A DNA stretch of 64,000 nt from the NCBI GenBank assembly GCA_051294905.1, contig CM119371.1:2668001-2732000 (forward strand), given 5' to 3'. The notes under the pieces were generated by a model. The model was not told the origin of the DNA, searched no databases, and was given only the letters and a program-made list of their open reading frames with translations. This stretch comes from Botryllus schlosseri. Its lineage: Eukaryota. Each line of letters opens with the position of its first letter. Position 1 is the stretch's first letter. Below, piece by piece: positions 1 to 38,715 of the stretch. The position numbers and the translations under genes are program-made.

Positions 1-3000
1 CGAGAAATACAGCCCTCGTATCTGATATCTTAATATATTTTCAGAAATAGCACCATGGCTATTAGAGATGTCAATAGTTTAGAGCAGTGGTTCTCACAGT
101 TTTTAGCGGGAGACCAAATTTTATGTTACTTTACATTTCGCAACCCAAGATTCGCTCGTGTAAAAATGCATTTCTGACACAAGTAAGCCCATGCAACTAT
201 TTTACGAGCATGTATGAATCAGGCAAGGTGCAGACGAAAAGACAGTCAATATCAAAGTAGGCTACCTATACCTTTCCGGAGTACTCGAGTAAGTAGATTT
301 GATTAGATCTGCTAACCATATTTAGGCAGAACTTTTTCGACTTTGGATTTTGCCAACTAGAAGTTGGTTTTGGGATAGGTAGCGAGCACTTTTACGTATA
401 AATTTTCATAACGGTGAAGTAGCGTCTGAATCACGGTCATTAAATTTATTTAAAATGGAACCAATTACTGGAAATATTTTTTGGCTCATTTTCAAACAAG
501 TTTTTTGCATTACAGTGCTGCCAATTAGCCACAATCGACAACACACGACATGCGATTTAATTACCGGTAGTTGCATAATTTCAAAATGTCGTGGTTCGAG
601 TTCTAGTTGCACATCTCAAAAATCCAGTGGTTTGAACAAATTTGCTGTATTACATTATTTTAAGAAGTGTGTAGGCCTATACTAGTGATTCTCATTGGCT
701 GAAAGATGATCAAGTGTTGTCAAGCAGGAATGACGGCAGAAAATAAAGCAGATAACGATCAAATTTAATGTCGGATATAATATTGCAAATATCAGCATCA
801 ATAGGAATTTTACCTGGTTTCCAATGAAAATTCAACACTTGACGTGTGACTGGTCCAAAAATGTCTGGATTGATATCGATTGAAACTTCTCAAAGCTTTT
901 AAAGCGTGTTCGATTGTTTGTGTGTGAAGTTGGTGAATGCGAATCAGAGCTTGTACGCTGGAATTCTTCAGATCTCGTATGACTCGAGATTCCGTGATGA
1001 CTACACCGCGCCGATCTTTGAATTGGAACAGAAGTACCTGAAAACATGATCGCATCAGTTTATCGAAGCACTAAAAAGGTAAACGCGTTAGCCAATAGCA
1101 AGGAAAAGCTATACAGTCGAGTATGCTATTTCGGACAGTTTTGTTTTGCTTCCTTTCGGCAAAAATAAGCAGAGACACTGCTTTATCCAAACTAACCGAC
1201 AAATCAATTTCCCTTTTATGGCAACCCGGTGAACCCTTACACTAATCTGAAAGCCTTTCGTGAACCCCGTATTTTTGTCAAGTCACAAAAAAACCTATCA
1301 CAAGACACTTCTAATACATTACTATAGAACTCTAATGAGTGCGGAATGACTTATGCATCAAGCTTCCGTGTTAAGAAAAACAAAACCGTTAAAACATGAT
1401 CATCACACAAAATTCACGACTGTAAATCAGTGTGACTTCTGTTGTATGAGTTGGATGTACAGAGGAACTGTATCGTGCGAAACGAGGTATGCTTGCTGTA
1501 CAGACCGTTGTCGTTCTCATGCTTATGAGACTGAGGTCTGATTTAATATGAACTGGACTTCATTCCATGTCCAAGTTTTCGCGAATTAAGTGATTCTAAT
1601 TCCAATCTAACTTTGAAAAATTGTGTAGATTCAACTCTGATTTTAATCATAATTTGAAAAAAGTCTGGTAATAATTATAATTCTAAATCTAGTATAGTTT
1701 GTAAAAAAACTGTGGGTTTTAGCCATCATTCTATTTCCAATCTGATTTCGAAAAGTTGAAAATGATCTAGTTGTTCAAATCTGGCTCATAGAACCTCTGG
1801 AGTTATCGTGTAAAACCCCGGTTAGGAATCATTGCTTCAAGATAACCTAATTAGAAAGTACGTTAATAGTTGTGATGCTGACATACCTACAACTATTTGA
1901 CACATCTAGGAAGATTGTGAGCACAAAGTCGAATTGTGCGTTGCATTTTTCAGTTTGGCCGGCTTTGCATTTTCAATCTTCGCAAGTTTCTTCCATTCTA
2001 TTGCGTTGAGACCTTCAGCGGCTTGCGTTCCTAAACAAAAAATCACAGGTGCACTGTAAAAAATATCCTCGGTAAATCCCGACATTAGGTTAGGTTCAAA
2101 ATTATCCGACTTGTGACCCGGGAAACTACTTTCCGACCTCATTAAAGTAGGTAAATCCCGAGTTTTCCATTACTCGGATTGGAAAAAACCGACCCTTATT
2201 GATAATTTTCATCGACCTTTCACCTATATTTTCATTGACCTTTCACCTCAGCCAAATCCCAGCTGTGCTGACTGACTAGGATTGCAAGAAACCGAGCCTG
2301 ACAAATAATTGTCATTGACCTTTCACCTTAAACACACAAAATCAGTAGTCAGTCTGCAGATTAAAAAGCAGTGTATATTAGCAGCAAATAAAGCATTGTT
2401 TCATAAAAGTATACAATCAGCAATATTGGAAACCTGCAGTGTCACAAATTAATAATGATGCGTAATTATTTCAGGTAAACAAACAATATATGTTTGTTGT
2501 TCAAGTTGAAAATTTTATTATGTAATGAGCACGCTGTGATGGTGCCAACAATTGAACATTGGTGCTTATAAGGTTTAGGCCAGTTGGTTGCCAATACGTT
2601 AAGCATTCCAAAAATATAATCAAAAGACCAAACTCTGGGCCACGCCCACGACCATTACAAATATATTGCGAATTGATATCGACAAGGACTAGCATCGATT
2701 AATTAAAAAACCAATGCTAAGCGTCACAACACAAGATATTACTGCTGGCAGTCATCAAAGAGGGCAAAAACAGGACCGCCACAAATCATAATATGACAAT
2801 TAATCGTTGAGTGTCATGTTTATCTTGTTGCGAACAGCATTAGTTGGTTTGACGTTTGGAAGCTTGGCGAGAAAAGTTGCGACAAAGTTCAAGGAGTTTG
2901 ATGATGAAGGAGCAAACTTCACATTGAAAACCCAATAAATAGCCATCAGGCATGCTAGAGCATGGTGAAAACCAAATAAACCTTTCACAACTTCTCCATC

Positions 3001-3278
3001 GAAATGAATCGTCCACTTTTCCGTCTCAGAATTGAATGCGATGGTCGGATAGACATTCTTCGGCTCCTACGAAATATAAATGTTACTATCCAGTATCCAT
3101 GGAATAGTTTAAAAGAGTGTGAGGTTTATGGATCAGTGATTTATAATGTGGGCGGGTAGGCAGAAGCTGGAACATTATGTAAATTATATTTAATTAATTA
3201 ATTATAACCCATTGGGAAATATCAAGCTTGATGCGGGGTTGTTCAGTGAAAATAAGTTGGAAAACAATAGGCGTAGAT

Positions 3279-3824
3279 CAGGGGCGGGCCGCGGATCTGG
3301 CCCGCGAGGCGATTTTGTCCGGCCCGCGGACAGTTTCCCGTCTTAGTTGATAATGTGGCCCGCCCGCCGGTGTCGGGTCAATATCGAGAAAACCATTACC
3401 GGGAATGCGTGCCACAGGAGAGCTTACGCGTAAGTTCGTGGACGCGAGAAGACTTTCATTATCGGCATTTACGATGTACTCAACCAAAATGGATTGATAT
3501 CTTGGTAAATTTGTGGTACCGGGGTTATCGAACGCCTTGAAATCTTAATTAAGGATTGCACCATGTGTTGATCGATCAGACAGAAGCAGATATGGTGGCG
3601 CCTGTATGACAATGATGTTCTCAAATCCACATTGTCTTCCTCAACATCGGCGAGAAATGGCTTTGAAATGACATAGGTGTCGTTACAATACATTCATTAC
3701 ATGCGATTTATTCTTTGTATATGAGGATAAATGGGCTAATAATGTATTGATTCAGCTATCCGGCCCGCCAAGTACTTAATTTTCCTACATCCGGCCCGCT
3801 GACTGGAGAAGCTGCCCGCCCCTG
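3279..3824. mobile_element. hAT-type MITE in the last intron of the accessory gene
   Basis: TIR CAGGGGCGGGC...GCCCGCCCCTG; perfect 8-bp TSD GCGTAGAT (3271-3278 and 3825-3832). Confidence 0.9.
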
Positions 3825-6636
3825 GCGTAGATCAACACGAGCACATATAAATATTCTACAAGATACATCATGTGGTCATATCATATCGTCTCAAATTAAA
3901 TTAAGTACGAACTGTGAAAACAATACTGACAGAGGCCATTTTAAATGTCCAAAATTATGTAATGAATGGGTGGAAATGTTTAGCTGCATTTTGAGAGATA
4001 CCGATGATCAACACACCTTGTCCACAATCAGGAAGTTGTCATACTTCTCTTTGAAGATCGTTGGGATGTACACCATCCAGTCCAGTTTTTGAGTACCTGA
4101 AAACGAAGTGCCAACTCAGATTAAGCACTTAAAGGACAGAAAATGATTCCCGAAATAACAAATAACGTAGTCAGCGTAAGTTCGAACTTTTGCGGTTTAT
4201 CAAGTAAAGGGGGTACGTTGACACATGCGTAGGGCACAATAATTCGAGTACTCGAATAGGAATCCAGTATAAATTGTAATGAAAAACGATTGTTTCGAGT
4301 ATTGTAATTATATGCTTACTATATAAGTCCGTGATTTCCAAAGGACTATCCGCCGCTAGTATGAATCTTGATGCTGAACTATAACTCTTCTCCAAAATCT
4401 TTGACGTCAGGTCGACAGAGTAAGTATCGTCGGAATAGTCTTGTTTCTGACAAATCATTTTCATTTCTTCCAAAATCTGAACAGTTGAAAATATTGACTT
4501 CATAGCATATGCCATGGATGGTCTTCAATTTGATTAGTAGTTTAAATTGACGTGCAAGTCCGGTGACGTACTGGTCATAACTATGTATAATGTTCTACCA
4601 ATACCAATAAAATATATATCATATCATTTAGTGTAATTCATTCTTGTGCGTTTCGTATGTATGCACACGGGGCTTATAAAAGGTGCCCGAAACCAATACT
4701 TTATACCTACCCAATGAGCATCTGCCAAAACTGGGTACGCACGCAACAGACTCGTTGTTGGTGTCCCTTTGATAACTTCATGTCGACGATCTTTAAAGGT
4801 CCTTTTCATCCTATCCATGATTGTGTCTTTATCAGCATTTCGGCTTCTTTTCCACTCAGTCATAATTTCCTTTTGGTGCGCTTCGATGCTACGCTCATCT
4901 TCCGGCGGGTATACGGTTGGAATCTACAAGAAAAAATATATTTTCTAATCAGAGATGGTCAGAGGCATTTTTCATCGTCAAGTTTTGACGAGTTTATAAT
5001 TGCGTAATTGCTATTACTGCGCAAATATAGTCGATAGACTCTCGCATAGGCCGAGAGTAGGTTTGGGCGAAGGTACAGACCAATTTCTTCAATATTCTGC
5101 GGAGGCGGGTCGCGGGGTATTTTCCAATAAAAGTTTGAGATTGAGAATATAAAAAGTTTGGGAACCCATGCGTTGAAAAATTCGCGTGACGCTGTTCGTT
5201 ATAGACCAGTGATTCCCAACCGCGGCCCCCAGCTACCCGTGTTTCGGCCCCCACAAAAATATTGAGGAATCGATTTATTAAAAAAAAATTATATTTATAA
5301 AATACTCTTGCTTGGCTTGGAGTCTGGAGTTTTCTATTAGGATTGTAGGCAAGTTTTGAGTAGACTGCTAAGATTGCCCCAACTTTCCAGATGAACGGGC
5401 TGTACCTATAGATATAGGTATTGACAGGACCGTTTCAAAATATGCTATTCTCTTGTGCTCAATATCAATATCCTCAATATTCCCCCTCTCACCCGTTATA
5501 CAGGTAACAAACGTTAATGAACAATGAAGGATTTGAAAATTCTTACAATGCATGATGACATTCGAGGTTTGGTGCACCTTTCACTCGATGTTCCCACAAC
5601 AAGGTCGTCGGTATGTTTCCGTTTACCCTGACGGTGTTTTCCGTGTTTTTGCTTTTTTTCCGTAACAAGAGGATCTTTACGGCCCCTACGGTACTCCTGG
5701 AACTGGGTTATGAGCTGTTTTTTCCAAGAATGCTGCAACGTAAGATATTTGAAGAAATGTTTGGAATGTTCAAACACAAGCAGCTCACGAAATTTTCACA
5801 TCCATCGAATTTCAAACGATCTTGCATCCAAGGATATTTCGTTATCAAAGCAGCTACTGGCGCATCGTATTGTTGTCTTGTGGGATATAGACTAGGAATA
5901 ATGACTGTTTTAGGCCACTGCAATTATCGTCATATACAAGAAAGGTTTATTATTTATATTGTAGGTCACCTAGTGTATTGCAGCAGGTCCCAAAACAGGT
6001 GATGAACAATTTTCAGTCTCAATTTTTGTGGAAGTACTTTTGTCTTTTCATACTGCTTCACTTCCTTTTCTATGGCTTTTGGTAAAGAAATCCTATATTC
6101 GTTGGGCTATGGCAATGGTTTGTTGTTTTCGTCACAATCTGCTGAACTGGTAGATGCCTTGGAGCTCGACAAGGTACTGTTTGATATACTTTCATCTGAA
6201 GAGAAGGATAAGGAATGAGGAAAATATTAATAATTCACCGTAAGTCAATACCTTCAGGTTCAAAATCTTCAACAGGCAGGTTAGGAAATGAAGAATCACA
6301 GCAGTATCCAACATTGTCAATGCTTGACGTTTCACTATGCATTACGTCTTCGTTAGATTGCCCTCCTGAAGCCATCGTGCTGGTGCAATCGGAGCCGAGT
6401 ATATCCAAGTCACTTTGTTCAACAACAGAGTTGTTGGTTTTCGGATAGGTTACCTCTGCACCAATAAAAATAGACTCGATGAGGGGTGAATCTATTTCGC
6501 CAAGGCACATCTGATCAGACTTGGAGAACTACGGTAGATAATTATAGTTGCGTAATTTCAAAAAATTATTGCGAAATGACAGTATTCTAATTCTAATCTA
6601 ATTTATTGCAAGAAAAAATATGAGTATAGGTAAATA

Positions 6637-7086
6637 CCGTAAACCGGGGTAACTTTGGACACTAAGCAGTAAAAGATTTAAATGGTTATTGATGAAAAAG
6701 GGTTGCCGCTGGATGTCCAATTCTTTTTCATGAGGCAGCAGTACTACAAGTAGTCTTTATAAAAGGTGGATTCATTTCACTACCAGATAAACTTGACCCA
6801 ACATCGATAAATTAATGGAGGGGGTCAATTTCGCCAAAATTGATGGCCAATAAACTTCTTACAGCCAAACATAGATAGCATGTGATTCATAGATTCAAAA
6901 CTTTGGACACAGATAATTTACAAAAATAAGGTACTTATTTATGATCATGAAGATTTTGGATTAGTTAATTCTAATCTTTGCTCCATGACTCCAAAAAAAC
7001 ACAAAACTTGCCTCCCCTACACCCTAGCATTTCCAAGATACAAAGCGGAATTGTTGAAAATTGTCCAATGTTACCCCGGTTTACGG
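6637..7086. mobile_element. Tc1/mariner (pogo-like) MITE
   Basis: TIR CCGTAAACCGGGGTAAC...GTTACCCCGGTTTACGG flanked by TA on both sides. Confidence 0.85.
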
Positions 7087-7501
7087 TATTCATCTCTCTC
7101 ATGAATGAGCCTACTGATCCTACATTTCACTTACTGCCACTGGTGCTCAAAATCAGCCGCAACATTAGTCCATCTACAATTTCCGACATGTCATGAAGAT
7201 CGACGTACGAATCAAATGTCTTGTCGTAATATTCCATTTTGAATTGATTGTCACCAATTTCATCATGAAATACATTTCTCACAACATCAGGAACCTCAGA
7301 TTGGTGATCAACTCTGATCACTCTTTTACTGTCACCATAACTAACCAGCAGTTTCATATTCAACTGTACAACAATCACAGCGGTAGTGTGTTGTGTATCT
7401 GTAAAATACAATGGTCATAATCAAAATAATGAAAATTGCAAAAAAGTTGTGAAAGCAATATTTTTCGATCAACATACTGCACTGTATAAGCTCAATTATC
7501 T

Positions 7502-9841
7502 TTAGGGTTCAAACTTGAAACATATTTGTTGATGCAGCCTAATGTACTGTGATTTGCCAATGAAGTATGCATCGTGGGGCCTTTGGTAAAATAATTCCCC
7601 GGGCTGAAAAACGTAAACAGTACCAGTTTCCTCCACAGCATGGCAGTGTAAATGTCGTACAAATCTCGACCTCAGCAATTCACCACACATGTGCCACTGT
7701 TCATTGAAATAAAGAATATATTGTACACGACAAAATATTGGTCCATCATCATCCTCATTTACAACATAAATCCCCCGCCTACCATATGTTTCATATCCAT
7801 TGTCATATAATTTCGAAGAACATACTTGTCCTTCCATATCTTGTATTCCAAGAAATGCAACATAGTGGCTTGGTATATCTTTCCATGATATGTTTACGAG
7901 CTCGATATTCATTGGATCATCATGCAAACAATTGAGTGAAGACATTTCCCAACATTTTCTGTACTGAAGTCGAGTGGCTACAGTGTGAGTTATGTTTTTG
8001 AAGTTTCCAGAAATTCTACAAATTTTTTTTACGATCTGATGGTAAGATTCAAATCTAAGAGAGGACAAATGAGAGATCGGGCCGCAGATTTTCGTTGCGG
8101 TCGCATAGTGTAATAAGTAGTGAAACTTCGGCTTAATTATTTCTGGTGCCAGCTTCAACACCGCGCTATAAAAATCAACAACCAGCACATCTAGTGAATG
8201 AATCATCTGAACCGTAACACGTTTAGCAAATACAATGTCACATATATCTGATAACAGCAAATACAATTCCCATACATCATTTTGTTCATCGATTCTTGTA
8301 CCGACCATGAAACTCAGATGATTGAAGAAACACCAGCTCTGCGTTGCAGTCAATGTCGAAACTTTACCTTTGTAGCGAGGCTTATTACGGCTTTCATACT
8401 TGCCATAGGGGAATTGTTGCACAAGTTCAATAAAATCTGACTTTGTCATGTCACAATCTTGAATGATCAACTTGTTTATGACAAGTTCGAGGATTGAAGA
8501 GATACAGCCCTCCATTAGATCATGCATAACGTCGAATACATTACAATGAATCGCATCAAACGCTAAAAGATCAGAAAATGGATTACTCATTCTCACTCCA
8601 TATGCTCTTTCGAGTGATGAGTGCCTTGCTACATCACGGACATGCAGCTCATGGTTGGATGGACACCTCAATTCAAACATTGTTTCAGAAAATTTCACAG
8701 TTAAATCTGAATAATGGCACATACAGAATCTACAAATACGACCGCTACTGAATGAACGACGAAACCCAGATATGTCATGACTTGCTAAATTATCACCAGT
8801 GACTGTTGCTATACTACCTTTGAAATGCCTTGTCATGCCATTCCAAAGAGTTACATCCATTCCAGATGTTTCCAGGGATTTTAAATCTTGAATCAACGGC
8901 TTGACTATCGCATGATATCCCATTTTTTTCACAGTGGAAGTTTTTACAATCAAGACCGGATGAATATTCCTCAAGTTCGACAAAAACTTCACTTCCACAT
9001 TTCCAAGCGTAAAATAAAAGCAAGTAAGCTTGTGTATACTTCTCGAACTTCCCAATGGGTTACAAATTTCGACATCATCTAAATATAAATGGATGCGCAG
9101 CAAACTCTGATCACCTTTAAAAAAGTGATTATTTTTAAACAAATCCCCATCGCAGAAGTTGCACAGAAACCCATGAGCAGAAGAACAAGACATATTCGCA
9201 TCTACACTTTCAATTACATCCTTGTGTTCCAAGTATCTTTTCAGAGTACTTAATATGGGAATATATTGATATGATTGGTCCTCATCCCCTTCACAAAGCA
9301 CTTTAACGGGCTCAACAAGACCTATGCTTGTTAAACATTTCTTAAATTGATAGTCACTCTGTGTTTGATCCATCATTTGCCTCAGATCTGGCAAATTATC
9401 AACATTGTTGGTAGCACAAGCATTTTTAAATGCTTCTAAAAGCTCAACTACGCCGAATAAGATGTCACGGGATACCGAAATTGGCAACAGATGTTTTTCG
9501 CGACATTGCAAAGCAAACCGCAAAAATACATCATGAATGTTTGGTAAACTGTCAATAACTTTCCCAGTCTCTTGCTGCGACTGATCCGACTGTTCTAGGG
9601 TGGAAACGCGCAGATCTGCTTCAAAATCTGAGTTTAACACTGTTCGTTTCACATGCTTGCGGTTAAGATGCATCCTGAAGCTATGATAAGTCGAAAACGG
9701 TGGAATTTTACCATTGCACGGCTCCATCTTGCAGTTGAAAGTGTTGCAGAAACGATGAATTCTGCGCACATGTTTCAGCAAGGCTTTTCGCGATGAAAAC
9801 TGATTAGAAATACAACCTGATGCAGGACAAACCCAATTCAT
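7502..9841 (-). CDS. CMC-EnSpm transposase with N-terminal C2H2 zinc fingers (~779 aa, intronless, uninterrupted)
   Basis: Likely start at MNWVCPASGC (ATG at 9841). Two C2H2-like fingers (CPASGC..HVRRIH; CKMEPC..HLNRKH). Family motifs YLDDVEICNPLGS, GDNLASH, CRFC, DVMHDLMEG, KPKFHYLLHY, SLRFESYH. Confidence 0.9.
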   Translation of the reverse strand: MNWVCPASGCISNQFSSRKALLKHVRRIHRFCNTFNCKMEPCNGKIPPFSTYHSFRMHLNRKHVKRTVLNSDFEADLRVSTLEQSDQSQQETGKVIDSLPNIHDVFLRFALQCREKHLLPISVSRDILFGVVELLEAFKNACATNNVDNLPDLRQMMDQTQSDYQFKKCLTSIGLVEPVKVLCEGDEDQSYQYIPILSTLKRYLEHKDVIESVDANMSCSSAHGFLCNFCDGDLFKNNHFFKGDQSLLRIHLYLDDVEICNPLGSSRSIHKLTCFYFTLGNVEVKFLSNLRNIHPVLIVKTSTVKKMGYHAIVKPLIQDLKSLETSGMDVTLWNGMTRHFKGSIATVTGDNLASHDISGFRRSFSSGRICRFCMCHYSDLTVKFSETMFELRCPSNHELHVRDVARHSSLERAYGVRMSNPFSDLLAFDAIHCNVFDVMHDLMEGCISSILELVINKLIIQDCDMTKSDFIELVQQFPYGKYESRNKPRYKGKVSTLTATQSWCFFNHLSFMVGTRIDEQNDVWELYLLLSDICDIVFAKRVTVQMIHSLDVLVVDFYSAVLKLAPEIIKPKFHYLLHYATATKICGPISHLSSLRFESYHQIVKKICRISGNFKNITHTVATRLQYRKCWEMSSLNCLHDDPMNIELVNISWKDIPSHYVAFLGIQDMEGQVCSSKLYDNGYETYGRRGIYVVNEDDDGPIFCRVQYILYFNEQWHMCGELLRSRFVRHLHCHAVEETGTVYVFQPGELFYQRPHDAYFIGKSQYIRLHQQICFKFEP

Positions 9842-10167
9842 GGCCGTCTGATGGCGTGAAACCGCACAGCGTTCGTTACCTCTGCTGTGTTCTGGCGAAA
9901 TGCGTGGTACGCACGCGGATCCACTCGCGCGGCAAATTATTGACCTCAAAAGACCTCTCTCGGGTCGATATAGTAGCAAATAGTTGGGGAAACTTTGATG
10001 ATGTAATCTCAACTCCCGATTTTACAATGGAATTTTCCACTGACAAAAATGTTTTGACAAAGACCATACTCACATGTAATCACTTTCAGTGCATGCTTGA
10101 GTGCTGTTTTGACAAAGACTTATACTCACATGCGTGTACACTGTACAGTACGTCTTGTGAACATAAC

Positions 10168-10857
10168 ATGCCTGAAACGGTGGATTTTTGCAGAGAAGTA
10201 TTGCAGCTTCGCAATGATTTCCACGTTATTTGGGAATCTCAAGAAAGGATATTACGCAGTAATCAAGAAGTAATGAATTATTTGAAGACAGTTGCTGATG
10301 ACGTGAAAAAGCAGACTAGACGGACGGACACGATTTACAAAATTTTCCAAAAAAAATACGGCATCTTGGAGGACATACCCAGAATTATCATGGCAGATGA
10401 AGACAGCTATAAAAAAATCCTTCGCCGACCAAATGGACAGAGATTTTTGATCTCGGATGAGCTATACCACTTATTGCATTCCACGTGTGGCCTACGCGAA
10501 CGAATTCTCAAAGATATTGAGATCATAGTGTTAGTTGCCAAATATATGGATGTTCGAAATATCCGATTCTGCAGGACGAATCTTCAACTAGACGGCGACG
10601 CCATGTCAGAAATTTTGGGTGTTAGTTCCTTCAAACCAACGTTCCAGCAAATGTGGAAGCTCCTGTATTATCGACATTGCGTCCCAGTGAGCGAAGTACA
10701 AGCAACAGAATTTAAAAGATCCCATCAGATCACATGGTCACAGCAATTCGAACTTCAGAAGTCGAAATCGGAAGCTGTCATCCCAGAAACCGACGCCCTC
10801 TGGCAGATTGTAGGGCGAGCTGACCTTGACGAAGCCAGCAGCGGACAACAGGCTTGA
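10168..10857 (+). CDS. Intronless coiled-coil + SWIB/MDM2 (MDM2 p53-binding-like) domain protein, ~229 aa
   Basis: Part of the open 9820-10857 frame. Best start is aacATG at 10168; AATAAA at 10926. Residues at 10444-10689 (ISDELYHLLHSTCG..EIIVLVAKYM..DAMSEILGVSSF..MWKLLYYRHCVPV) parallel the MDM2 N-terminus (LLLKLLKSVG..EVLFYLGQYI..DLLGDLFGVPSF..IYTMIYRNLVVV, recalled from memory). Confidence 0.7.
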   Translation: MPETVDFCREVLQLRNDFHVIWESQERILRSNQEVMNYLKTVADDVKKQTRRTDTIYKIFQKKYGILEDIPRIIMADEDSYKKILRRPNGQRFLISDELYHLLHSTCGLRERILKDIEIIVLVAKYMDVRNIRFCRTNLQLDGDAMSEILGVSSFKPTFQQMWKLLYYRHCVPVSEVQATEFKRSHQITWSQQFELQKSKSEAVIPETDALWQIVGRADLDEASSGQQA

Positions 10858-11351
10858 TTTGATCAGTGACAAATGACGAAAAATTCGACGGTTGATAATT
10901 GCCTGATATGATAGGTTGGAGAAGTAATAAAATCACAAGATTCATTGGTTGTCTATATATGTGTAATGTTTTCTGTAAGCCAGTGTGAGTAATAGCCAGG
11001 CGCGTAGCCAGCCGAAAAATAAGGGGGGTTTGAAATAAAAGGTGGTGCTGGTTTCGATTTTTTCCGAATTTAGTAACGTAGCATTGACTCATTAGGGTTA
11101 AGTACATGCGATGCGTAAACAACGATTATACGACATCCCCGTATTGGCGATTATAGACGTATGATAAGCTTGTCGACGAGTCCGGAATTGCTGTTAATTA
11201 GCGACTCCCTGATCTGTCGTGAACAATGAAATACGCACGCGTCGAACATTTGAATACGCGCGCTTATCAACGAGCTAATGGTCATGAAGTCAGCATCGCA
11301 CTTTTCTACTAGTGGTAACCATAGATGGCTATACTTTCTAAGTAGCTTCAA

Positions 11352-11930
11352 GCAGGGTTGTTGATTCTACTTGAGTAATTTCTTGAAATGACTCGACTCG
11401 AGTCAATTTTTGTATTGACTCGTCTTGAACTCGAGTCATCGCGTATGACTCTTACCAAGTCACATGACTCAAGACTGGGACGGTCAAGACAGACATTTCA
11501 TTGTAACTTCGAAATATAGTGAAGCCACCGCATCATTGGTATGTTTTCCATTAGTCCTGATACTTGGAAAATATGGTCAGGAGCTGTTAGGACTGAGAAA
11601 AAGTGCGATATTCTATAACACTCGAGTAGAATTGAAAAAGTGGGTTGAATCGGATTGGACTCAAAACTGAACAGTGAACATAATTACTGTGTTTCCATGC
11701 AGTGCCGACGAACGACCAAAAGGCTATGACGCATGTATTGTACATGATGGCCGTGTTTCCATGACCAGGCTTAATCCAACCTTGTCTTGGCCGAACAAGA
11801 CTGACATGTACGTTTTTATCTCACTTATTCACTATGAATTTCCACCACATCACAAGATTGCGATGAAATGACTCGATAGGAAGGAGCCGATACGACTAGA
11901 ATCGACCATTCAATCAAACTACCCACTTCG
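11352..11930. mobile_element. Degraded hAT-type MITE of the GACTCGAGTC-rich family
   Basis: CAGGGTTG start and clustered gactcgagtc motifs shared with copies at ~18020-18200, 41038-41280, 43911-44391, 47670-47972 and 57730-57823. Confidence 0.6.
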
Positions 11931-13177
11931 ACCTGGAACATGTAGGTAGGCTGAAATTAAACATATAAAAATGGTCCCGGAATGAATTTTTGGAGTTGCA
12001 ACGCCTTGCATTTCAAGCTCGAAAGCCCGTCTTTTTGAAATGACGATTCTATCTCCATTATTACTTAGCTCATTTGCAATTCAGTAGTTTTTATTACAGT
12101 ATTATCAGTTGTTAGTTCGTTGTGTTTGAGTTAGTACGGCATCAGATTTTGAAAGGCCGTTAGTTTTAGATCAGAGGTTCTAAAACTGGGGGCGTGAAAC
12201 CATCTGAAGGGAGGCGCGAAGCTGTGATCAAATAAAAAAAAATCGCGCTTTGCGCAGTTTACATCCAATTCCATATTAGAGGATTCTCACATCAACAGTC
12301 ATAACTAGGGCGATTTTTGTAACATGTCAAAAAATGTCAAAATTATTTACAAAGTTGTATACTACTTTTTTGCAATCTGCATTTTGTTTATATTGTAGAT
12401 TTTGCAGTGTCAGTGCACTTATCGTCTGACATTTACCGCCCAGTCTGCTCATTGTGAATCATAAACATTCAAATAAAACAAATAGGTTGGCATGGTGATA
12501 TGCTCAACGTAATGGGCAATGCATGGTACTTATATCAAGAAGCGTTTTGCTCTAAACATTTTAATTATTTCTACCATAACACGTAATGTTACAACAGCAA
12601 TACTTCATAGGGACAGATTTCGGTAAAATGAATTTTTTCATGTAAAAATTTTTCAGTTATATCGGCAAAATAAAATTTTCAGGATAAACTACTTCGTAAG
12701 AACAAACAATTCCAATCAGAGGTGAAGATAGGTAGTACAATTCTAACGTTATGTGGGAAAACAACTAATTTGTATACGTTAGGTCAAATTTGGTCAAATT
12801 ATTTAGGTGGAAAATTAGGAAGTTACTTGGTATATGAAAGAGCTGGTTGGGGAGAGAAATATTACTGACATATTTGCTTAATAATATTTAATTGGTAGGC
12901 TAATAGACCTAGTCTAAATAAACTTCGTACATAGATACTTCTGAATTCAATCTGCAATTCAATTTCAGATCAAACAAAAATTAGATTGGGTGTCAATAAA
13001 GTTTCAGATTTTGCAAATATTTGGATCAAGACATTATGAAGTATGAGTTGATATGATTAAAGAGCAATTTATTTTAACGGAATACCGGTAGGCCAACATG
13101 AGCGTTATCAGGTTATCACATATAAAAAAAGAGCTTTTTCTGCAAATTTTTTCTTGAAATGGAAGATTTACAAGCAG

Positions 13178-13455: not shown

Positions 13456-14162
13456 TTTGCAAGCTGATTTGAAATTGTATGTAAATGAGATAGGCTACTT
13501 CGGCAATAAATAGTTGTTCTAATTGTTATGTTACATAAGTTGATCGATTTTATCATGCAAAAGTTAAGGTAATAATTTCAGGTACACAGCCCATAATGTC
13601 TCCCTCTCATTTCTGTCTATATCGTAGGCCTACTTCAAAACTTTTGTGAAGGGTGTCATATGAATTATGTAGTAACATGGAACATGTACTTAAGTAATGA
13701 GTTAGATGCCAAAATTCTGTAACTAGAATATGGAGCATAATTTTCAGAAATATTCCCTGTAGTCCAAGTTCGTAAGTAAATATTACATAAAAACTCCTTT
13801 CCTAAAGATTCTATGCGGCAGGTATTATACGACACTATTTACCAAAATATTCAGGCAAACAGAAATGATAGGGAGAGTTATGAAATATTTTTACACACAG
13901 CGATTTCCATGGGCTTCACCTTCAGCTACATTCTTGGCAGGGCACCAAAGATGAATATTTTCTCACTGGCTTGCTGAATTCATCAATTTATACAACATGA
14001 CAACATTCTCAGGCCTTAGTAGCTCATTTAAACTGACGCAAGTTCAGATCTGCATAAAATCAGCACTTGGATTTCACGGTTAAATGAGCAGAAAGCTTGT
14101 TTTCATCATACGATAACTTGAAAACTTCATTCAAAATGGATACCGGTAGCTATCTACTCAGC

Positions 14163-14883
14163 GATTACCAGTGAACCCAGCCCTCGGTAAACCCAGCCAT
14201 ACAAACCCAGCCCTCGGTAAACCCAGCCCTCGGTAAACCCAGCCCTCGGTGAACTCGGCCCTCGGGAAATTTTGTATTCACTGGCAACCCTAATATCCCC
14301 CTCTCCCAACCCTAATATCCCACCTCCCCCAACCCTAATTTCCCACCTCCACCAACCCTAATATCCCCCCTCCCCCAACCCTAATATCCCACCTCCGGCA
14401 ACCCTAATATCCCACCTCCACCAACCCTAATATCCCACCTACACCAACCCTAATATCCCCCCTCCCCCAACCCTAATATCCCACCTCCGGCAACCCTAAT
14501 ATCCCACCTCCCCCAACCCTAATATCCCCCCTCCCCCAACCCTAATATCCCACCTCCCCCAACCCTAATATCCCACCTCCACCAACCCTAATATCCCACC
14601 TCCACCAACCCTAATATCCTACCTCCGCCAACCCTAATATCCCAGCTCCCAGCTTTAATTCAAAATTTTTCGGGGGCGGAATTCACCGAGGTCCATAGTA
14701 TTCGAGAAACACCATGAATACCACAAAACAAACAAGTAGATTATGTGAGCGCCACGTTATCTCCCCCGCTTACTCAATCCGTGAATACAAAATTTCCCGA
14801 GGGCTGAGTTCACCGAGGGCTGGGTTTACCGCGGGCTGGGTTTGTAAGGCTGGGTTTACCGAGGGCTGGGTTCACCGGCAACC
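14163..14883. mobile_element. MITE with ~110-bp internally repetitive TIRs and 8-bp TSD (Merlin- or Mutator-like, unclassified)
   Basis: Ends GATTACCAGTG / CACCGGCAACC; arms built of aaacccagccctcggt units ending in gggaaattttgtattcac; TSD TACTCAGC (14155-14162 and 14884-14891). Confidence 0.85.
14285..14650. repeat. ~23-bp minisatellite (CAACCCTAATATCCCACCTCCCC) x ~16, containing CCCTAA
   Basis: Direct tandem array inside the 14163-14883 MITE; the minus strand is rich in G runs. Confidence 0.95.
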
Positions 14884-15906
14884 TACTCAGCAATAGCCTT
14901 TCACAAGGTGATGAGTCAAATTTCAGCAAAATCTGCAACTGGATGGAGACCGAATTTCTCTTTGGTTCATTTGACATAGAATTACCTATATAGGCCTACA
15001 TCAGTCACAAAGAATCCAATAAGCTGGCTTGGTCATTGTTCATGGCTTAAGGTTGAACTTAATCGGACTTCCAGTATCATTTTACATTCAGTAATTTTAT
15101 TCTTGAGCTAGGCAGGAAAGAACGATCGATACTCCATGGAAACTCGAAAATTATGTTTGATAGAAGCTGTAAGCCAATATGGAATTGGCGTCTCGTGCAG
15201 ACTGAAGAATCTACTGAATACACACAGGTGTGAAGAAAGACGCTTTTGAGAACCGTCTCGGCACACCAAACATATCACGCTATCAGGACGTATCAGGATT
15301 CCATTTTCGAGCATATTGATTGAATACATAAACACTTCTTCCTTGCCGACGGCGATTTTCAGAGTCCGGGGTTACCGGTGTCGAATATCAAGCCATGACA
15401 CCATTTCAAAAGATTTCACATCAGACCAACCTTTCGTAACACACTGATGCAGTCAGAGGCCATCACAATTTCGAGTTGGTAACCTCTATTCCTATCGATA
15501 TACTGTACTATTGTATGTGAGCACAGTATAGAAGCGCGAAACGGTATACCAATAAAGCACAGGCCAACAATCAATCAACATCAAGTAGCTGTACGGTAGG
15601 TTATCGGTTCGCGCATTCGCCAATTCGGCATCGTGGTGATTCATCTTTTCTTCCTAAATTCAGGTGTACCACGTCAATCTTTTTCGCTTTATCCAGTAAT
15701 ATAAGTAAGTGAGTCAGCCTGTACTCTGAAACATATTAGCCATATTTTCAACGTCCGATCGAATTAAAACTAATATTAGAACACTCAATCAGCTGATTTC
15801 ATTCCATGTTTTGACTCAGAGCCATTCATGCACGTGAGACATTAGCTCCACCACGCGGAAGAACGAAAGGCGTCGAACTGATAACACTCATGCAGTTCGA
15901 TATCAC

Positions 15907-17320
15907 CATAGTGTCCTATATGGTGTCGACACAAGCAAATCTCACGGTTCAATGAAATTGTATCACGTCACAATTTCCATTTGGCTACAGGCAATTTGAC
16001 GGTTATCTTTGACCGGCTTGCCGAGCAATAAATTTGATGAATAGGGTATCAATCGAAAGCTGACTCTGCACTGATTACGAAAATATAAATTTTATTACAC
16101 TCATGGCCCTGGAACCCCCACAATCAGCCCCAAATTATTCATTGTTGAGTAGATTGGCAGTGTGACGCAACAGTGCTGTCTGGCGAAACGAGAGAGAAAC
16201 TCAAGAGCAAGGATGCGGCCGAGCGGCGAGAGTGGGATCAGCTGACGTCGCGGCAATAGCTATGTGCAAATATAGATAACTAACCTAGCTATACTTAGGC
16301 GGAAGGATCTCTATAAGTTGAAGGATATTGCAGGAAAATTCGTAGGTCCCAAATACATTCTGTGGACGCAGTTCTACCTTTACAAATCAAGGAAAGGCTG
16401 GTAATGTGTGCTCGCTTTTAGCGAAGCGCCTATAGAAAGTATCAACAGCGCCACGCATCTCTGGAGCCCTACGCAACAAGCGGGCTAAGGTAATCGATAT
16501 CATAATAATCTGACATATCCAATGAAGACTACTTAGACGTAGCCTAAATATCTCTATCAGCTGAAGGATATTGCGCGAAAATTGGTAGGGACCAAATACA
16601 TTCTGTGAACCCAGTTCTACCCTTACAAATCAAGGAAAGGCTGGTAATGTGCGCTCCCTTTTAGCGAAGCGCCTATAGAAAGTATCAACAGCGCCACGCG
16701 TCTATGGAACCCTACGCAACTAGCGGGCTAAGGCAATCGATATCATAATAATGTGACATATCCCATGTAGACAACTTAGACGTAGCCTAAATATCTCTAT
16801 CAGTTGAAGGATAATGCGCGAAAATTGGTAGGGCCCTAATACATTCTGTGGACCCAGTTCTACCCTTAAAAGTCAAGGAAAGGCTGATAAGGCGTGCTCT
16901 CTTGTACGGAAGCGAATAGAAAAAGTGTCAACAGCGCAGCGTTTCTCTGCGACGCGATTGCACATAGCTATTGCCGCGACGTCAGCTGATCCCACTCTCG
17001 CCGCTCGGCCGCATCCTTGCTCTTGAGTTTCTCTCTCGTTTCGCCAGACAGCATTGTTGCGTCACACTGCCAATCTACTCAACAATGAATAATTTGGGGC
17101 TGATTGTGGGGGTTCCAGGGCCATGAGTGGAATAAAATTTATATTTTCGTAATCAGTGCAGAGTCAGCTTTCGATTGATACCCTATTCATCAAATTTATT
17201 GCTCGGCAAGCCGGTCAAAGATAACCGTCAAATTGCCTGTAGCCAAATGGAAATTGTGACGTGATACAATTTCATTGAACCGTAAGATTTGCTTGTGTCG
17301 ACACCATATAGGACACTATG
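15907..17320. mobile_element. Foldback element, P-superfamily-like (CATAG...CTATG), ~365-bp TIRs
   Basis: Near-perfect inverted arms at 15907-16270 and ~16958-17320; 7-bp TSD ATATCAC (15900-15906 and 17321-17327); core of ~2.7 tandem ~243-bp units. Confidence 0.85.
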
Positions 17321-35699: not shown

Positions 35700-36407
35700 G
35701 TTATAATCAGTGAATAATATCGCTATGCAATGTCAAAGTCATTGTGTTGACCTGAAAGACAGATGCGCACTTCGTTGATTAGGAGTAGTAATATTCTGTT
35801 GCGCACTAATTCATGTCGACATGCACACTCCAGAATTTTGACGATGCTGAAAAAAACTTTTTATTTACGCGAAGCATTTTGTAGGGGCACGCGCCGTTTG
35901 CTTACTTAAATGTCACATAATTTTTCAAAATATGGATGAACAATCCGATCATCGCCAGCCTGGCTGGTATCGATCACACCAATATCAAATTTCATTACAT
36001 TGCATTCATTTCATTCATTGTCAGTGTAGTAGAAAGTTGATTTTTGTTGATGAGGTCATGACATTACCTTAGCGCTCTTATTGCTACCACTACTTTACAT
36101 AATCCCCCATTTCACCAAATTCGATTGCATAGCTCGATATTAATGACACAGTGCGGATATTAAAACATCATATCAGTGGGTAAATACTCTACGGCTTCGG
36201 GATGAAAGCAGAGTAGGACTGTTAAAAAAATTCTTCAGAATTAAATGGCTATGTTGTAAAATTGTTAGGTTGGTTGAAACAACGCTGTAAACCAAATTTG
36301 GCTTCAAGTCCAACCAGTAGAAGCAAGATTATTGCTGTAAAAAGTTTTGAATTTATAATTAAAAAAAATTCAAAGTTTTTCTTTCAACCCCATAAAATTG
36401 TAAGGTA

Positions 36408-38715
36408 TATATAAATATCGACTTTTCAATTAGATAAAATAAAAAAAGGGCAAAAGAAAACGGGAGACAAAAAGAACATAAGATAATCAGTTTTGGGCTC
36501 GTGTTAAGCGTCTCCAACGTGGGCGGTCGTGAGCGTCTTCAAGCGAAAGCCCGCGTTGCGCTAGATCAGTCTCCATTGTCGAGCGCCATGTTCTCCGATT
36601 CCAGTCATCTCTGCGCCATGGCTCCGTGGGAATGTGATTAATGATGGCGGCGGCTGGTTGCTCGTCTTGGTGCCGCACTAGATGGCCGATTAGACGGAAG
36701 CGTCGTTCAGCTGCCAGTAGACGGCATGGGACCGTTCCGCTGAGTTCTCGCAATGCGTTCGTGGATATATGCTCCGGATGGTGAATGCCGAGTGCATAGC
36801 GGAGGAGTGCGTCATAGTTAGCGTTGAGCGTCTTCGCCAGCTTCTCTGTCAGCGTGAGTGCCTCTATTCCGTAGAGAAGAACCTGCTCGACAGTGGTACG
36901 GAAGATGCGGGTCTTGAGCTGGGTTGAGGCACTTGAATGGAAGAGGCTATGTAGCCGTCTTGCCGCGCCCCAGGCCTTTGCTCGCCTCGCCTTGAGCGCT
37001 TTTCCAGAGTCAGCGACGTCAATACCGAGGTATACAAAACTCGTTACATACTTGAGATCGATATCTCCGAGTCGAATTGGTGTCGCGTTCTCCGGTAGAG
37101 CTGGTATGGCCAGAACCTCAGTCTTCTTAGCGTTGATCTGGAGGCCAACAAGAGCGGCGTCGGCCTCTAGCTGGTTAATGAGGCGCTGTGCCGATGCGGT
37201 TTTCGGGGCAAGCAGGGCTAGATCGTCTGCGTAGGCAAGAATACCAACGTGGATTGCCTCGCGAGTCGTACGCGTGCGCGTTCCTTGCCGTGGCCGCCAT
37301 TCAAAGAAGTTCGTAGTATCCGGGAAGGCCGTTCGTAGCACGAAGTCAAGGATGACCACGAACAAGAATGGTGCCAGGGTGTCATCTTGAAGCACACCAG
37401 CCGAAGTGTTGAAATCTCCGCTTGGGCCGTCATCTGTTCGGACTCGCGCTCGTGTGTCAGTGTAGAGGGCCATAATGGCGTACGTTATCACCTCAGGAAT
37501 TCCATAGAATCTGAGGATCTCCGCCATGGCTGGGCGCGAGACCGAGTCGAAGGCTTTCGCGAAATCAACGAAGACGGCCACAACATTCTTTTTGTGTGAG
37601 CGGCAGGTGTCAATGATTGTGCGCAGTGCCAGGATGTGCTCTGTTGTACCGCGAGATGGTCGAAATCCATTCTGAGCATTCAGGAGCTTGGTAGAGAGTT
37701 GCTCACGTATGCGGAGGAGCAGTACTCGGTCGAACAGCTTGGCAGCGGTCTGCATCAGGGAGATGCCTCTGTAGTTCGCTGGGTCACTCGCAGCGCCTTT
37801 CTTGTAGATAGGGACGATTTCGCTCTCGAGCCACTCGGGGGGCACCGGGCCGCCTTCGAGGACGCCATTCATGACGTCGAGGAGCACAGGTGCCACGCCC
37901 GAGGTGTAAGAAGCCGTTGGGATGCCGTCCGTGCCGGTGGCCTTGAATTGTGGTACTCCACGAAAGGCTGTCTTGAGCTCACCTAGCGTGATCAGGGTTG
38001 TATTGATCGCTAGAGGATTTGCTGCTAGTGAAGGCGGTGCAACGAGCACATCGATGTCCGGTGCAGGTGTAGATAACAGGGTCTCGAAGTGTGCTGCGAG
38101 GTCTTCCGTACAAGCCTTCACGCGGGTCCTCTTGAAGCCAACTAATTCACCGATGGCTTTCCAGGCTGCTCTTGATCGGCCTGCTTCCAACTCATTTTCC
38201 ACGGAAAGGGCAATAGCTTCGACTCGTTCCTTGCGAGCTGCGTCGTAAACGTTTGTTAGGTACCGAGCTGCCGCGTTAGCATCGCTATGTGCGTCCAGTG
38301 TTCCAGATGTGTACGCAGCACGTCTGAGAGTCTTGAGGTTAGGGCGCGCACTGAGCACTGTCGGGTCGGATTCCCAGGCTAATCTTGGCCGTGGCTTGCT
38401 ACGGGCCTCACCGAGCGTTTCACGGGCTGCATCCTTTACTGCTGCTACAAGTGGCGCAAAGGCGGTCGGTATAGTATTTTGGATCTCGAGGGCACGGAGT
38501 GTGTGCGTGGTAAAGACATTCATCTTATTTGCGTCCTTAAGATCGAACCGATTTAGTAGTGGCTCTTTCGGTGTGCGCTTCGGGACGAACGGGAGGCGTT
38601 CGCGAAGCGTGGCCAGCACCAGGCGATGGTCACTCCTGATCGTTAGCATGCGCACCGTTCGGCAGTTCGTGAAATGGCGCCGTGCGGGAGCATTGCAGCA
38701 GATATAATCCAGCCG
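36408..38715 (-). mobile_element. 5'-truncated non-LTR retrotransposon (RTE-like LINE)
   Basis: 10-bp TSD TTGTAAGGTA (36398-36407 and 38716-38725); short T-rich 3' UTR with a (TA)n end; single ORF. Confidence 0.9.
36487..38715 (-). CDS. LINE ORF: C-terminal end of AP endonuclease + reverse transcriptase (partial)
   Basis: LDYI..SDHRLV (end of APE); PIYKKG..NYRGISL, QNGFR, FVDFAKAFDSV, GVLQDDTLAP, YADD, FVYLG. Uninterrupted but lacks its N-terminus. Confidence 0.92.
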   Translation of the reverse strand, partial: RLDYICCNAPARRHFTNCRTVRMLTIRSDHRLVLATLRERLPFVPKRTPKEPLLNRFDLKDANKMNVFTTHTLRALEIQNTIPTAFAPLVAAVKDAARETLGEARSKPRPRLAWESDPTVLSARPNLKTLRRAAYTSGTLDAHSDANAAARYLTNVYDAARKERVEAIALSVENELEAGRSRAAWKAIGELVGFKRTRVKACTEDLAAHFETLLSTPAPDIDVLVAPPSLAANPLAINTTLITLGELKTAFRGVPQFKATGTDGIPTASYTSGVAPVLLDVMNGVLEGGPVPPEWLESEIVPIYKKGAASDPANYRGISLMQTAAKLFDRVLLLRIREQLSTKLLNAQNGFRPSRGTTEHILALRTIIDTCRSHKKNVVAVFVDFAKAFDSVSRPAMAEILRFYGIPEVITYAIMALYTDTRARVRTDDGPSGDFNTSAGVLQDDTLAPFLFVVILDFVLRTAFPDTTNFFEWRPRQGTRTRTTREAIHVGILAYADDLALLAPKTASAQRLINQLEADAALVGLQINAKKTEVLAIPALPENATPIRLGDIDLKYVTSFVYLGIDVADSGKALKARRAKAWGAARRLHSLFHSSASTQLKTRIFRTTVEQVLLYGIEALTLTEKLAKTLNANYDALLRYALGIHHPEHISTNALRELSGTVPCRLLAAERRFRLIGHLVRHQDEQPAAAIINHIPTEPWRRDDWNRRTWRSTMETDLAQRGLSLEDAHDRPRWRRLTRAQN

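Follow-up and report, generated by a model that had tools for sequence, protein, structure and literature searches.

An MDM2-like gene carried by a CACTA-type DNA transposon of Botryllus schlosseri

A 64,000-nucleotide stretch of the Botryllus schlosseri genome (assembly GCA_051294905.1, contig CM119371.1, forward-strand positions 2,668,001 to 2,732,000; hereafter the window, with its first letter as position 1) holds a copy of a DNA transposon of ~10 kb that is, by its sequence, of CACTA/EnSpm type and whose core genes are a 779-amino-acid transposase and a small downstream open reading frame (ORF), ORF3. The window copy carries a further gene, ORF2, which is transcribed, ends in an AATAAA signal and used poly(A) site of its own, and encodes over residues ~91-175 a domain that sequence comparison identifies as homologous to the N-terminal p53-binding domain of the host MDM2. 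A preliminary description, made from the DNA letters alone, had pointed to the likeness with MDM2 and proposed a transposon-linked p53 decoy. An element-borne, MDM2-derived cargo acting as a p53-family decoy is also the best overall explanation of the results presented here, and it is put forward tentatively. The features on which the argument rests are as follows.

Positions 2052 to 11276, no strand assigned: window copy of the transposon, with the left end intact and the last ~310 bp (subterminal repeat array and right inverted repeat) absent
Positions 2052 to 2082, plus strand: left terminal inverted repeat, starting CACTG at the exact base where the flanks of the copies diverge
Positions 7127 to 7357, minus strand: ORF3, 76 amino acids from its ATG, just downstream of the transposase and a core gene of the family
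Positions 7502 to 9841, minus strand: transposase, intact; its C2H2-like fingers are N-terminal, and C(2)C and H(3)H motifs lie at residues 370 and 574, respectively
Positions 9842 to 10167, no strand assigned: spacer separating the two start codons, in which promoters presumably lie and ORF2-less relatives stop matching at 9997 or 10064
Positions 10168 to 10857, plus strand: ORF2, with residues 1-90 predicted helical (coiled-coil-like), ~91-175 the homologue of the MDM2 N-domain and 176-229 a tail
Positions 10438 to 10692, plus strand: MDM2/SWIB-like domain, ORF2 codons 91-175, placed by BLASTP, hhalign and VIA-align
Positions 10926 to 10944, plus strand: 3' end of the ORF2 mRNA, with AATAAA at 10926-10931 and poly(A) addition at 10944, from sequence and RNA reads

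A six-frame search of the 495 Mb genome with ORF2 returned six matches, five of which were copies of ORF2 (three at 93-100% identity, one at 29% and one degenerate). The only match outside the family (C13:1749465-1749806, E 1.1e-7) fell in a locus encoding a 469-amino-acid protein with a SWIB domain (E 3.4e-9), a RanBP zinc finger and a RING domain (E 3.5e-10), for which the best named relative was Styela clava Mdm2-like at 39% identity; based on these domains and this relative, the locus was taken to be the host MDM2. Pairwise BLASTP aligned ORF2 with residues 5-108 of host MDM2 at 29% identity over 112 residues (E 5e-12), and the divergent 29% homologue of ORF2 independently matched the same locus (E 4.8e-6). 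All four ORF2-family members compared matched host MDM2, with E values from 2e-11 to 2e-6, and in addition each matched P0007 or the Styela Mdm2-like protein (P0008). Furthermore, hhalign aligned a profile built from the ORF2 family only with a profile of five MDM2 proteins at a probability of 96.6% (E 5e-10) over 95 columns, spanning MDM2 residues 2-98. The likeness to MDM2 is thus more than chance, as the genome search, BLASTP, hhalign and family-wide matches all indicate. Matches of the ORF2 family to two vertebrate MDM2 proteins were not convincing (best E 0.002), and the preference for tunicate over vertebrate MDM2s fits an origin in the tunicate lineage. We infer that the element took up the ORF2 domain from the MDM2 gene of a tunicate before the lineages of the element diverged. 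Host MDM2 (L005:1519-2928; C13 ~1.749 Mb) is a single uninterrupted ORF of 469 codons and apparently intronless, so for a transposon to capture its 5' part at the DNA level would be simple.

Searches beyond the genome added few sequences. The ORF2-only profile gave five matches among 1.84 billion representative proteins, of which two were real, P0002 (88% identity) and P0004 (an 85-amino-acid fragment); the other three are repeat or coiled-coil proteins and were judged spurious, after reading the sequences of P0003 and P0006. A word-based search with ORF2 produced one match, a single-sequence search of solved structures nothing relevant, and a scan of metagenome contigs 153 pattern matches, none of them confirmed. 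Pfam Ras-association matches to ORF2 (E 0.03-0.05) were sub-threshold and taken as noise.

An AlphaFold model of ORF2, generated with host MDM2 in the alignment, reached per-residue confidence scores (pLDDTs) of ~79-90 over residues 91-200. Long helices at residues 2-64 are followed in the predicted model by a compact domain at ~91-175, in keeping with the helical segment and ~80-amino-acid domain of the preliminary description. Among the matches listed by Foldseek for this model, all were MDM2 or MDMX (template modelling (TM) score ~0.8), and VIA-align gave Z scores of 10.3 for human MDM2 (root-mean-square deviation 1.8 Å, 84 residues) and 9.0 for MDMX. The SWIB domain of the remodeller subunit BAF60 scored 8.0 against the 10.3 of MDM2, a comparison made on a model built with MDM2 in the alignment, and plant SWIB domains scored 7.0 and 6.5. 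No remodeller SWIB gene was present among the genome-wide sequence matches of ORF2 or its divergent homologue. Language-model features, which are alignment-free, placed ORF2 with SWIB/MDM2 clusters at 0.83-0.84, which serves as a lead only.

ORF2 and the N-domain of MDM2/MDMX therefore share a homologous domain, at 29% identity to host MDM2, and the same fold in the MDM2-informed model. In contrast to MDM2 and MDMX, ORF2 has no acidic region, RanBP2-type zinc finger or RING (host MDM2 has the zinc finger and RING), as had been noted earlier: it stops after 229 residues, and none of these regions is seen by Pfam. Having no RING, it cannot ubiquitinate. It also adds the helical N-terminal part of ~90 residues, has shorter cleft loops, lies below Pfam detection and is encoded by a mobile element. 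Judged from its sequence, ORF2 is a single-domain, RING-less derivative and not an MDM2 or MDMX.

The boundaries of the element were defined by comparing the window with its own 495 Mb assembly at the DNA level, where two other copies are collinear with it. Local blastn aligned the window copy with the copy at C3:32640497-32650442 over 2052-4533 (99.6% identity) and 4699-11276 (98.0%); this collinearity bears out the earlier statement that no terminus lies between the two genes. The C3 copy runs 312 bp past the base matching window position 11276, into the right inverted repeat, and no right-end sequence was found anywhere in the 64 kb window. Sequence comparison thus identifies the window copy as a third ORF2-bearing copy, truncated on the right. 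The left end opens with CACTGTAAAAAATATCC..., where the shared sequence of the copies starts and beyond which their flanks are unrelated, and the right end closes with ...GGATATTTTTTACAGTG in the C3, C1:0.2 Mb, C7 and C12 copies. In the C3 copy, ~ten ATTCTCGGTAATG-like subterminal repeats are followed by the inverted end ...TTTTTTACAGTG. The terminal inverted repeats measure ~30 bp (CACTG...CAGTG), and the 31-nt end had 36 matches in the genome (18 forward, 18 reverse) compared with 0 for a reversed-pattern control. These matches are mostly facing pairs 3-13 kb apart and indicate ~14 complete elements, of which two carry transposase and ORF2 and one (C7) the transposase only, the rest being internally deleted.

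Target duplications of 2 bp flanked all three complete copies checked (AA for C3, TA for C1:0.2 Mb and TA for a deleted copy on C12). Over 6589 bp, the C3 copy and the one at C1:202340-212616 share 99.95% identity, which ends at the last base of the inverted repeat, and their flanks are unrelated. Because two copies this similar occupy different sites, the element looks recently mobile. Co-occurrence of both genes within shared CACTG termini and short duplications, suggested earlier as a check, was found in these two complete copies, which hold ORF2 between both ends. As they have different flanks and both enclose ORF2, ORF2 is mobile cargo. The preliminary description had also reckoned with transposase copies that end before position 10168; this holds in part, as some copies of the same family are without ORF2, and fails for the two complete copies that enclose it.

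ORF2 is also present in an older element type. A divergent element at C3:5.07 Mb has the same order of ORF3, transposase and ORF2, with a transposase remnant 43% identical and an ORF3 31% identical to those of the window. Its ORF2 (222 amino acids, 28% identity, E 2e-20) occupies the same position and has the same helical N-terminal part, domain and tail. A decayed second copy of this type lies on C10 (81% identical in DNA, 80% and 57% in protein over two stretches, with one stop). Since the divergent element keeps ORF2, the gene would have joined the family before the lineages split, been kept open, and been lost or replaced in some sub-lineages. In the 3.7 kb examined of the L004-type divergent element there was no match to the family inverted repeat and there were no tandem repeats. 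A different multi-copy repeat (L046:1-736, C3 ~5.0675 Mb) cuts the left side of the divergent ORF2-bearing element; its last 211 bp recur at 100% identity ~4 kb upstream, resembling a long terminal repeat.

ORF2 of the window copy differs from that of the C3-type copy by 4 synonymous and 17 non-synonymous substitutions (ratio of non-synonymous to synonymous rates, dN/dS, 1.12), versus 17 synonymous and 14 non-synonymous substitutions in the transposase (dN/dS 0.21; Fisher p = 0.012 against ORF2). Such recent fast change in a protein retained over the long term suits an ORF2 that is functional and evolving rapidly, and the sequences point to a frame that has probably been kept open while evolving fast since its capture.

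Both genes of the window have simple structures. The ORF list shows the transposase frame uninterrupted from its ATG at 9841, and ORF2 is read as 229 amino acids from the ATG at 10168, within an uninterrupted frame open from 9820 to 10857. The start codons diverge and lie 327 bp apart (10168-9841), and no splice joints were seen in RNA reads mapped over the transposase and ORF2; the earlier account of two divergent, intronless and uninterrupted ORFs therefore agrees with both ORF list and reads. A start at 9820, giving a 345-amino-acid frame, was rejected as the true ORF2 start: it overlaps the start of the transposase, and the methionine at 10168 aligns with the matching methionine of the divergent homologue. 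The ORF2-specific part of the spacer contains, just before the ORF2 ATG, a direct repeat of 27-28 nt (10050-10076 and 10105-10132; TGTTTTGACAAAGAC..ATACTCACATG), which is a possible promoter element.

Among the sequencing runs listed as containing the stretch, none is recorded as RNA, and part of the stretch was present in a second organism (B). Evidence of expression comes from raw reads of four runs, which were mapped on 7000-11400 and accepted from 95% identity, so that they may stem from any ORF2-bearing copy. In the single-cell RNA run X21 (3% of the run read, 535 reads placed), minus-strand reads peaked at the transposase 3' end, 7441-7734 (depth 70, 33), and plus-strand reads at 10528-10968, the 3' end of ORF2 (depth 11, 110, 40). 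The two genes are thus transcribed on opposite strands, which in part answers the transcription check proposed in the preliminary description; the bidirectional promoter suggested there is putative. Beyond 10944, a position 13 nt from the AATAAA, four X21 reads ran on as non-templated A tails in place of the genomic ATTGG.

In the decoy explanation, the MDM2-type cleft of ORF2 would take up the amphipathic transactivation helix of a p53-family protein of the host and, without the E3 ligase part, would mask this helix rather than degrade the protein. MDMX masks the p53 helix without degradation. ORF2 may oligomerise through its helical part, and the p53 response to the double-strand breaks of cut-and-paste transposition would be damped where the element is active. 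Masking of the p53-family transactivation helix by a ligase-less MDM2 domain is favoured over the alternatives, yet less likely than not. The cleft was mapped through the ORF2/MDM2 alignments, using the human numbering and a list of contact residues. By this mapping, hydrophobic residues are kept at ~8 of 14 cleft positions, and ORF2 shares F and W with tunicate MDM2 at the positions of human H96 and Y100.

Candidate targets exist in the host, which has four p53-family loci. Two are tandem intronless p53-like genes encoding 376 and 377 amino acids, with the N-terminus SQESISPIFNDVM, which we take to resemble the p53 transactivation motif. This pair (L053:1267-2397, L054:1267-2400; C6 ~18.60 Mb) is 77% identical, lies ~8 kb apart and looks like retrogene duplicates. 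The two other loci, on C12 and C10, bear introns, and their N-terminal exons were not found; the Pfam P53_TAD model had no match over the cut-off in the genome. Complex prediction with ORF2 residues 85-205 and the first 60 residues of an intronless p53-like protein of the host (score 0.09, mark 0.34) was run without controls and counts neither way.

A number of results weigh against ORF2 acting as a p53-family decoy. The Pfam SWIB/MDM2 family (PF02201), by which the preliminary description had wanted the domain checked, is blind to ORF2 at E≤1; given that homology is shown by the other tests, the missing match leaves the core claim standing. Similarly, the ORF2-only profile fails to reach human MDM2 among solved structures at E≤10, and it found no MDM2 at E≤0.001 among the 1.84 billion representative proteins. 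When host MDM2 was left out of the alignment, the mean pLDDT of the model fell to 41, with Foldseek still returning MDM2, at insignificant scores (E ~0.09, TM score ~0.35). Confidence in the fold thus requires host MDM2 in the alignment, and the fold is consistent with homology and not independent proof of it. Within the cleft, by the mapping above, ORF2 is charged where human MDM2 has M62 and Y67, and deletions of three residues near V75-C77 and of one residue at V93 shorten two cleft loops; the modelled cleft may be altered.

Other points of this kind concern the distribution, expression and evolution of the gene. The sister copy on C7 has both ends and an intact transposase, 94-95% identical, and no ORF2; at least 11 deleted copies are likewise without ORF2 and are arranged as on C7. 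These copies leave the window sequence at 9997/10064, between the two start codons, and continue for 0.7-1.1 kb in other sequence to the right end, in which no ORF2-like frame was found. This corrects the preliminary description in one respect, since a boundary does exist between the genes; from the sequence, it is a recombination or replacement breakpoint and not a terminus. ORF2 was present at three of 20 transposase loci (L007-L026, with 1.5 kb flanks, by a profile search of all ORFs), and by this distribution it is dispensable in cis. The bulk RNA run X23 (6% read) gave barely any cover of either gene. Finally, a dN/dS near 1 for ORF2 also fits relaxed constraint.

One alternative is that ORF2 serves the element as an accessory protein, with a cleft that binds another ligand: a chromatin factor, the DNA of the subterminal repeats, or a helix within the transposase or ORF3 could be considered. 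Plant CACTA elements have a second protein, which such an arrangement would parallel. The explanation ranks next after the decoy and is rather unlikely, and it draws on several of the observations above: the fold also matches remodeller SWIB domains (Z 8.0 for BAF60, 7.0 and 6.5 in plants), several cleft positions and two loops differ from MDM2, and the array of right subterminal repeats is presumably bound by some protein. Long-term retention and expression of ORF2 also argue for some function. However, the nearest relatives of ORF2 by sequence are MDM2 proteins and not remodeller SWIB proteins. The sister lineage with an intact transposase and the many mobilised deleted copies are without ORF2, so it is not a core transposition factor, and a dN/dS near 1 would be unusual for a structural partner of a conserved transposase.

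Alternatively, ORF2 could be a functionless passenger, a piece of host MDM2 that is transcribed from nearby promoter activity and drifting. The dN/dS of 1.12 between recent copies, the decayed, stop-containing copy of the older type on C10, sister lineages that manage without ORF2, and the scarcity of public relatives (one protein of 88% identity and one fragment of 85 amino acids) would all be expected of such a passenger. Against this, element types whose transposases are 43% identical both keep a frame of 222-229 codons with the same start and architecture (E 2e-20), and neutral sequence would be unrecognisable at that distance. ORF2 also has its own AATAAA and used poly(A) site, it is covered more deeply than the transposase in the single-cell run, and the dN/dS of 0.21 for the transposase, which shares the same copy genealogy, makes the contrast gene-specific. 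Overall, we consider a passenger improbable. That ORF2 is a host or domesticated gene merely lying beside a transposase can be largely dismissed: the C3:5.07 Mb copy is intact in a dead element (transposase internally deleted, left side cut by a repeat), as a domesticated gene might be, but all five ORF2 loci lie in transposon sequence, contrary to the single-copy host gene considered in the preliminary description, and two of the copies sit between both inverted repeats at unrelated sites with different duplications, so that window-type copies contradict a host gene.

A CACTA-like transposase, as proposed at the outset, is supported by the CACTG termini, 2 bp duplications, subterminal repeats and near-cut-off matches to Plavaka and DUF4218. 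In Pfam, the transposase matched Plavaka (E 0.002) and DUF4218 (E 0.12), both under cut-offs, and its paralogues reached Plavaka at E 7.6e-6 at best (25.8 bits versus the cut-off of 26.3). It had 58 scored matches in the genome, and its relatives elsewhere, all unnamed, were from Ciona, Styela, sea cucumber, bivalves, ants and rotifers; a few of these database relatives carry precomputed DUF4218 (PF13960) or Transposase_21 (PF02992) annotations. Members of the CACTA/EnSpm-Mirage-Chapaev (CMC) clade have inverted repeats starting 5'-CACT(A/G), subterminal repeats, C(2)C/H(3-4)H motifs and duplications of 2-3 bp, or of 2-5 bp in the wider clade (PMC12730594). The element resembles CACTA/EnSpm (CMC/CMCT) transposons in its CACTG...CAGTG ends, 2 bp duplications and subterminal repeats, and the motifs of its transposase and the Plavaka/DUF4218 matches just under the cut-offs fit this group. 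It differs in belonging to an animal lineage, whose relatives (tunicates, echinoderms, molluscs, insects, rotifers) are all unnamed, and in that neither ORF2 nor ORF3 is related to plant TnpA. ORF3 is 31% identical (E 9e-8) to the ORF at the same position in the divergent element L004, and ORF3-like ORFs also follow the transposase in L010, L017 and L019; no Pfam family matched ORF3 at the curated cut-off. The left 5 kb of the element (2052-7100) contained no long ORF, and none of the five ORFs tested there had a Pfam family. A further element is nested in this part.

Positions 6637 to 7085, no strand assigned: nested element of 449 bp resembling a miniature inverted-repeat transposable element, with 34 nt inverted ends (91% complementary; arms 6628-6661 and 7062-7095)

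The nested element is absent from the C7, C12 and C5 copies and present only in ORF2-bearing copies; from these comparisons, it is not part of the ancestral transposon. The very high contig depth over its right part in runs X10 and X13 assigns it to a family of many copies. Depth was also far above that of ORF2 at 10996-11276, behind the poly(A) site and up to the truncated edge, with many reads breaking at 10996 and 11031; this segment is probably another repeat or a high-copy inner edge of the subterminal region. Adjoining the truncated element, a repeat beginning at 11279 (11279-12500 and beyond) has at least 15 further copies at 78-91% identity, all in the same orientation and within the first 4 Mb of contig C1, which suggests a large regional repeat or segmental array of this chromosome arm. 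Elsewhere in the window, GC skew was strongly negative (-0.27) at 14001-16000, and a GC-rich island (0.50 versus a background of ~0.38) was present at 36001-38000.

Transposon cargo acting on host control is already known, and an MDM2-derived cargo is to our knowledge a new form of it. VANC of plant VANDAL elements, a transposon-borne counter-defence cargo, resembles ORF2 in being a lineage-specific non-transposase gene inside the element ends that is proposed to act on host control. VANC and the TET/JBP dioxygenases act on DNA methylation or silencing, whereas ORF2 derives from a regulator of the p53 damage response and its function is putative. The dioxygenases share the same likeness as cargo of fungal KDZ/CMCT transposons, members of the same broad clade, and are read as anti-silencing by the author of that work (PMC12730594). 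A transposon-borne MDM2-like gene was not among the matches listed by literature searches, which is limited evidence: the searches covered open-access papers and preprints, and one was swamped by off-target matches. We know of no reported transposon-encoded countermeasure to p53. Viruses have p53 antagonists, among them adenovirus E1B-55K, papillomavirus E6 and SV40 large T, which are not MDM2 homologues. Under the favoured decoy explanation the likeness would lie in a selfish element neutralising p53 to tolerate its own replication stress, and the difference in a DNA transposon having copied the p53-binding module of the host itself. Three papers describe p53 as restraining mobile elements (PMC4701979, PMC7608743, PMC5031199), and the proposal of p53 as a guard against them comes from flies, fish and human cells and concerns mostly retrotransposons (PMC4701979, PMC7608743). 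That a currently active animal transposon has copied a ligase-stripped p53-docking module as a decoy, as the transposon counterpart of viral p53 antagonists and with an arms race explaining its fast evolution, is a doubtful proposition at present.

If it were true, the functions of transposon cargo would extend from anti-silencing to evasion of the damage response, and the element would provide a natural, minimal and fast-evolving MDM2 domain for studies of p53-MDM2 recognition in the closest invertebrate relatives of vertebrates. Should ORF2 bind another ligand, this would still be a rare documented animal CACTA element that keeps a captured host domain in the long term. An element that looks recently mobile and has an expressed MDM2-derived gene offers a clean test case for whether DNA transposons tamper with the p53 pathway.

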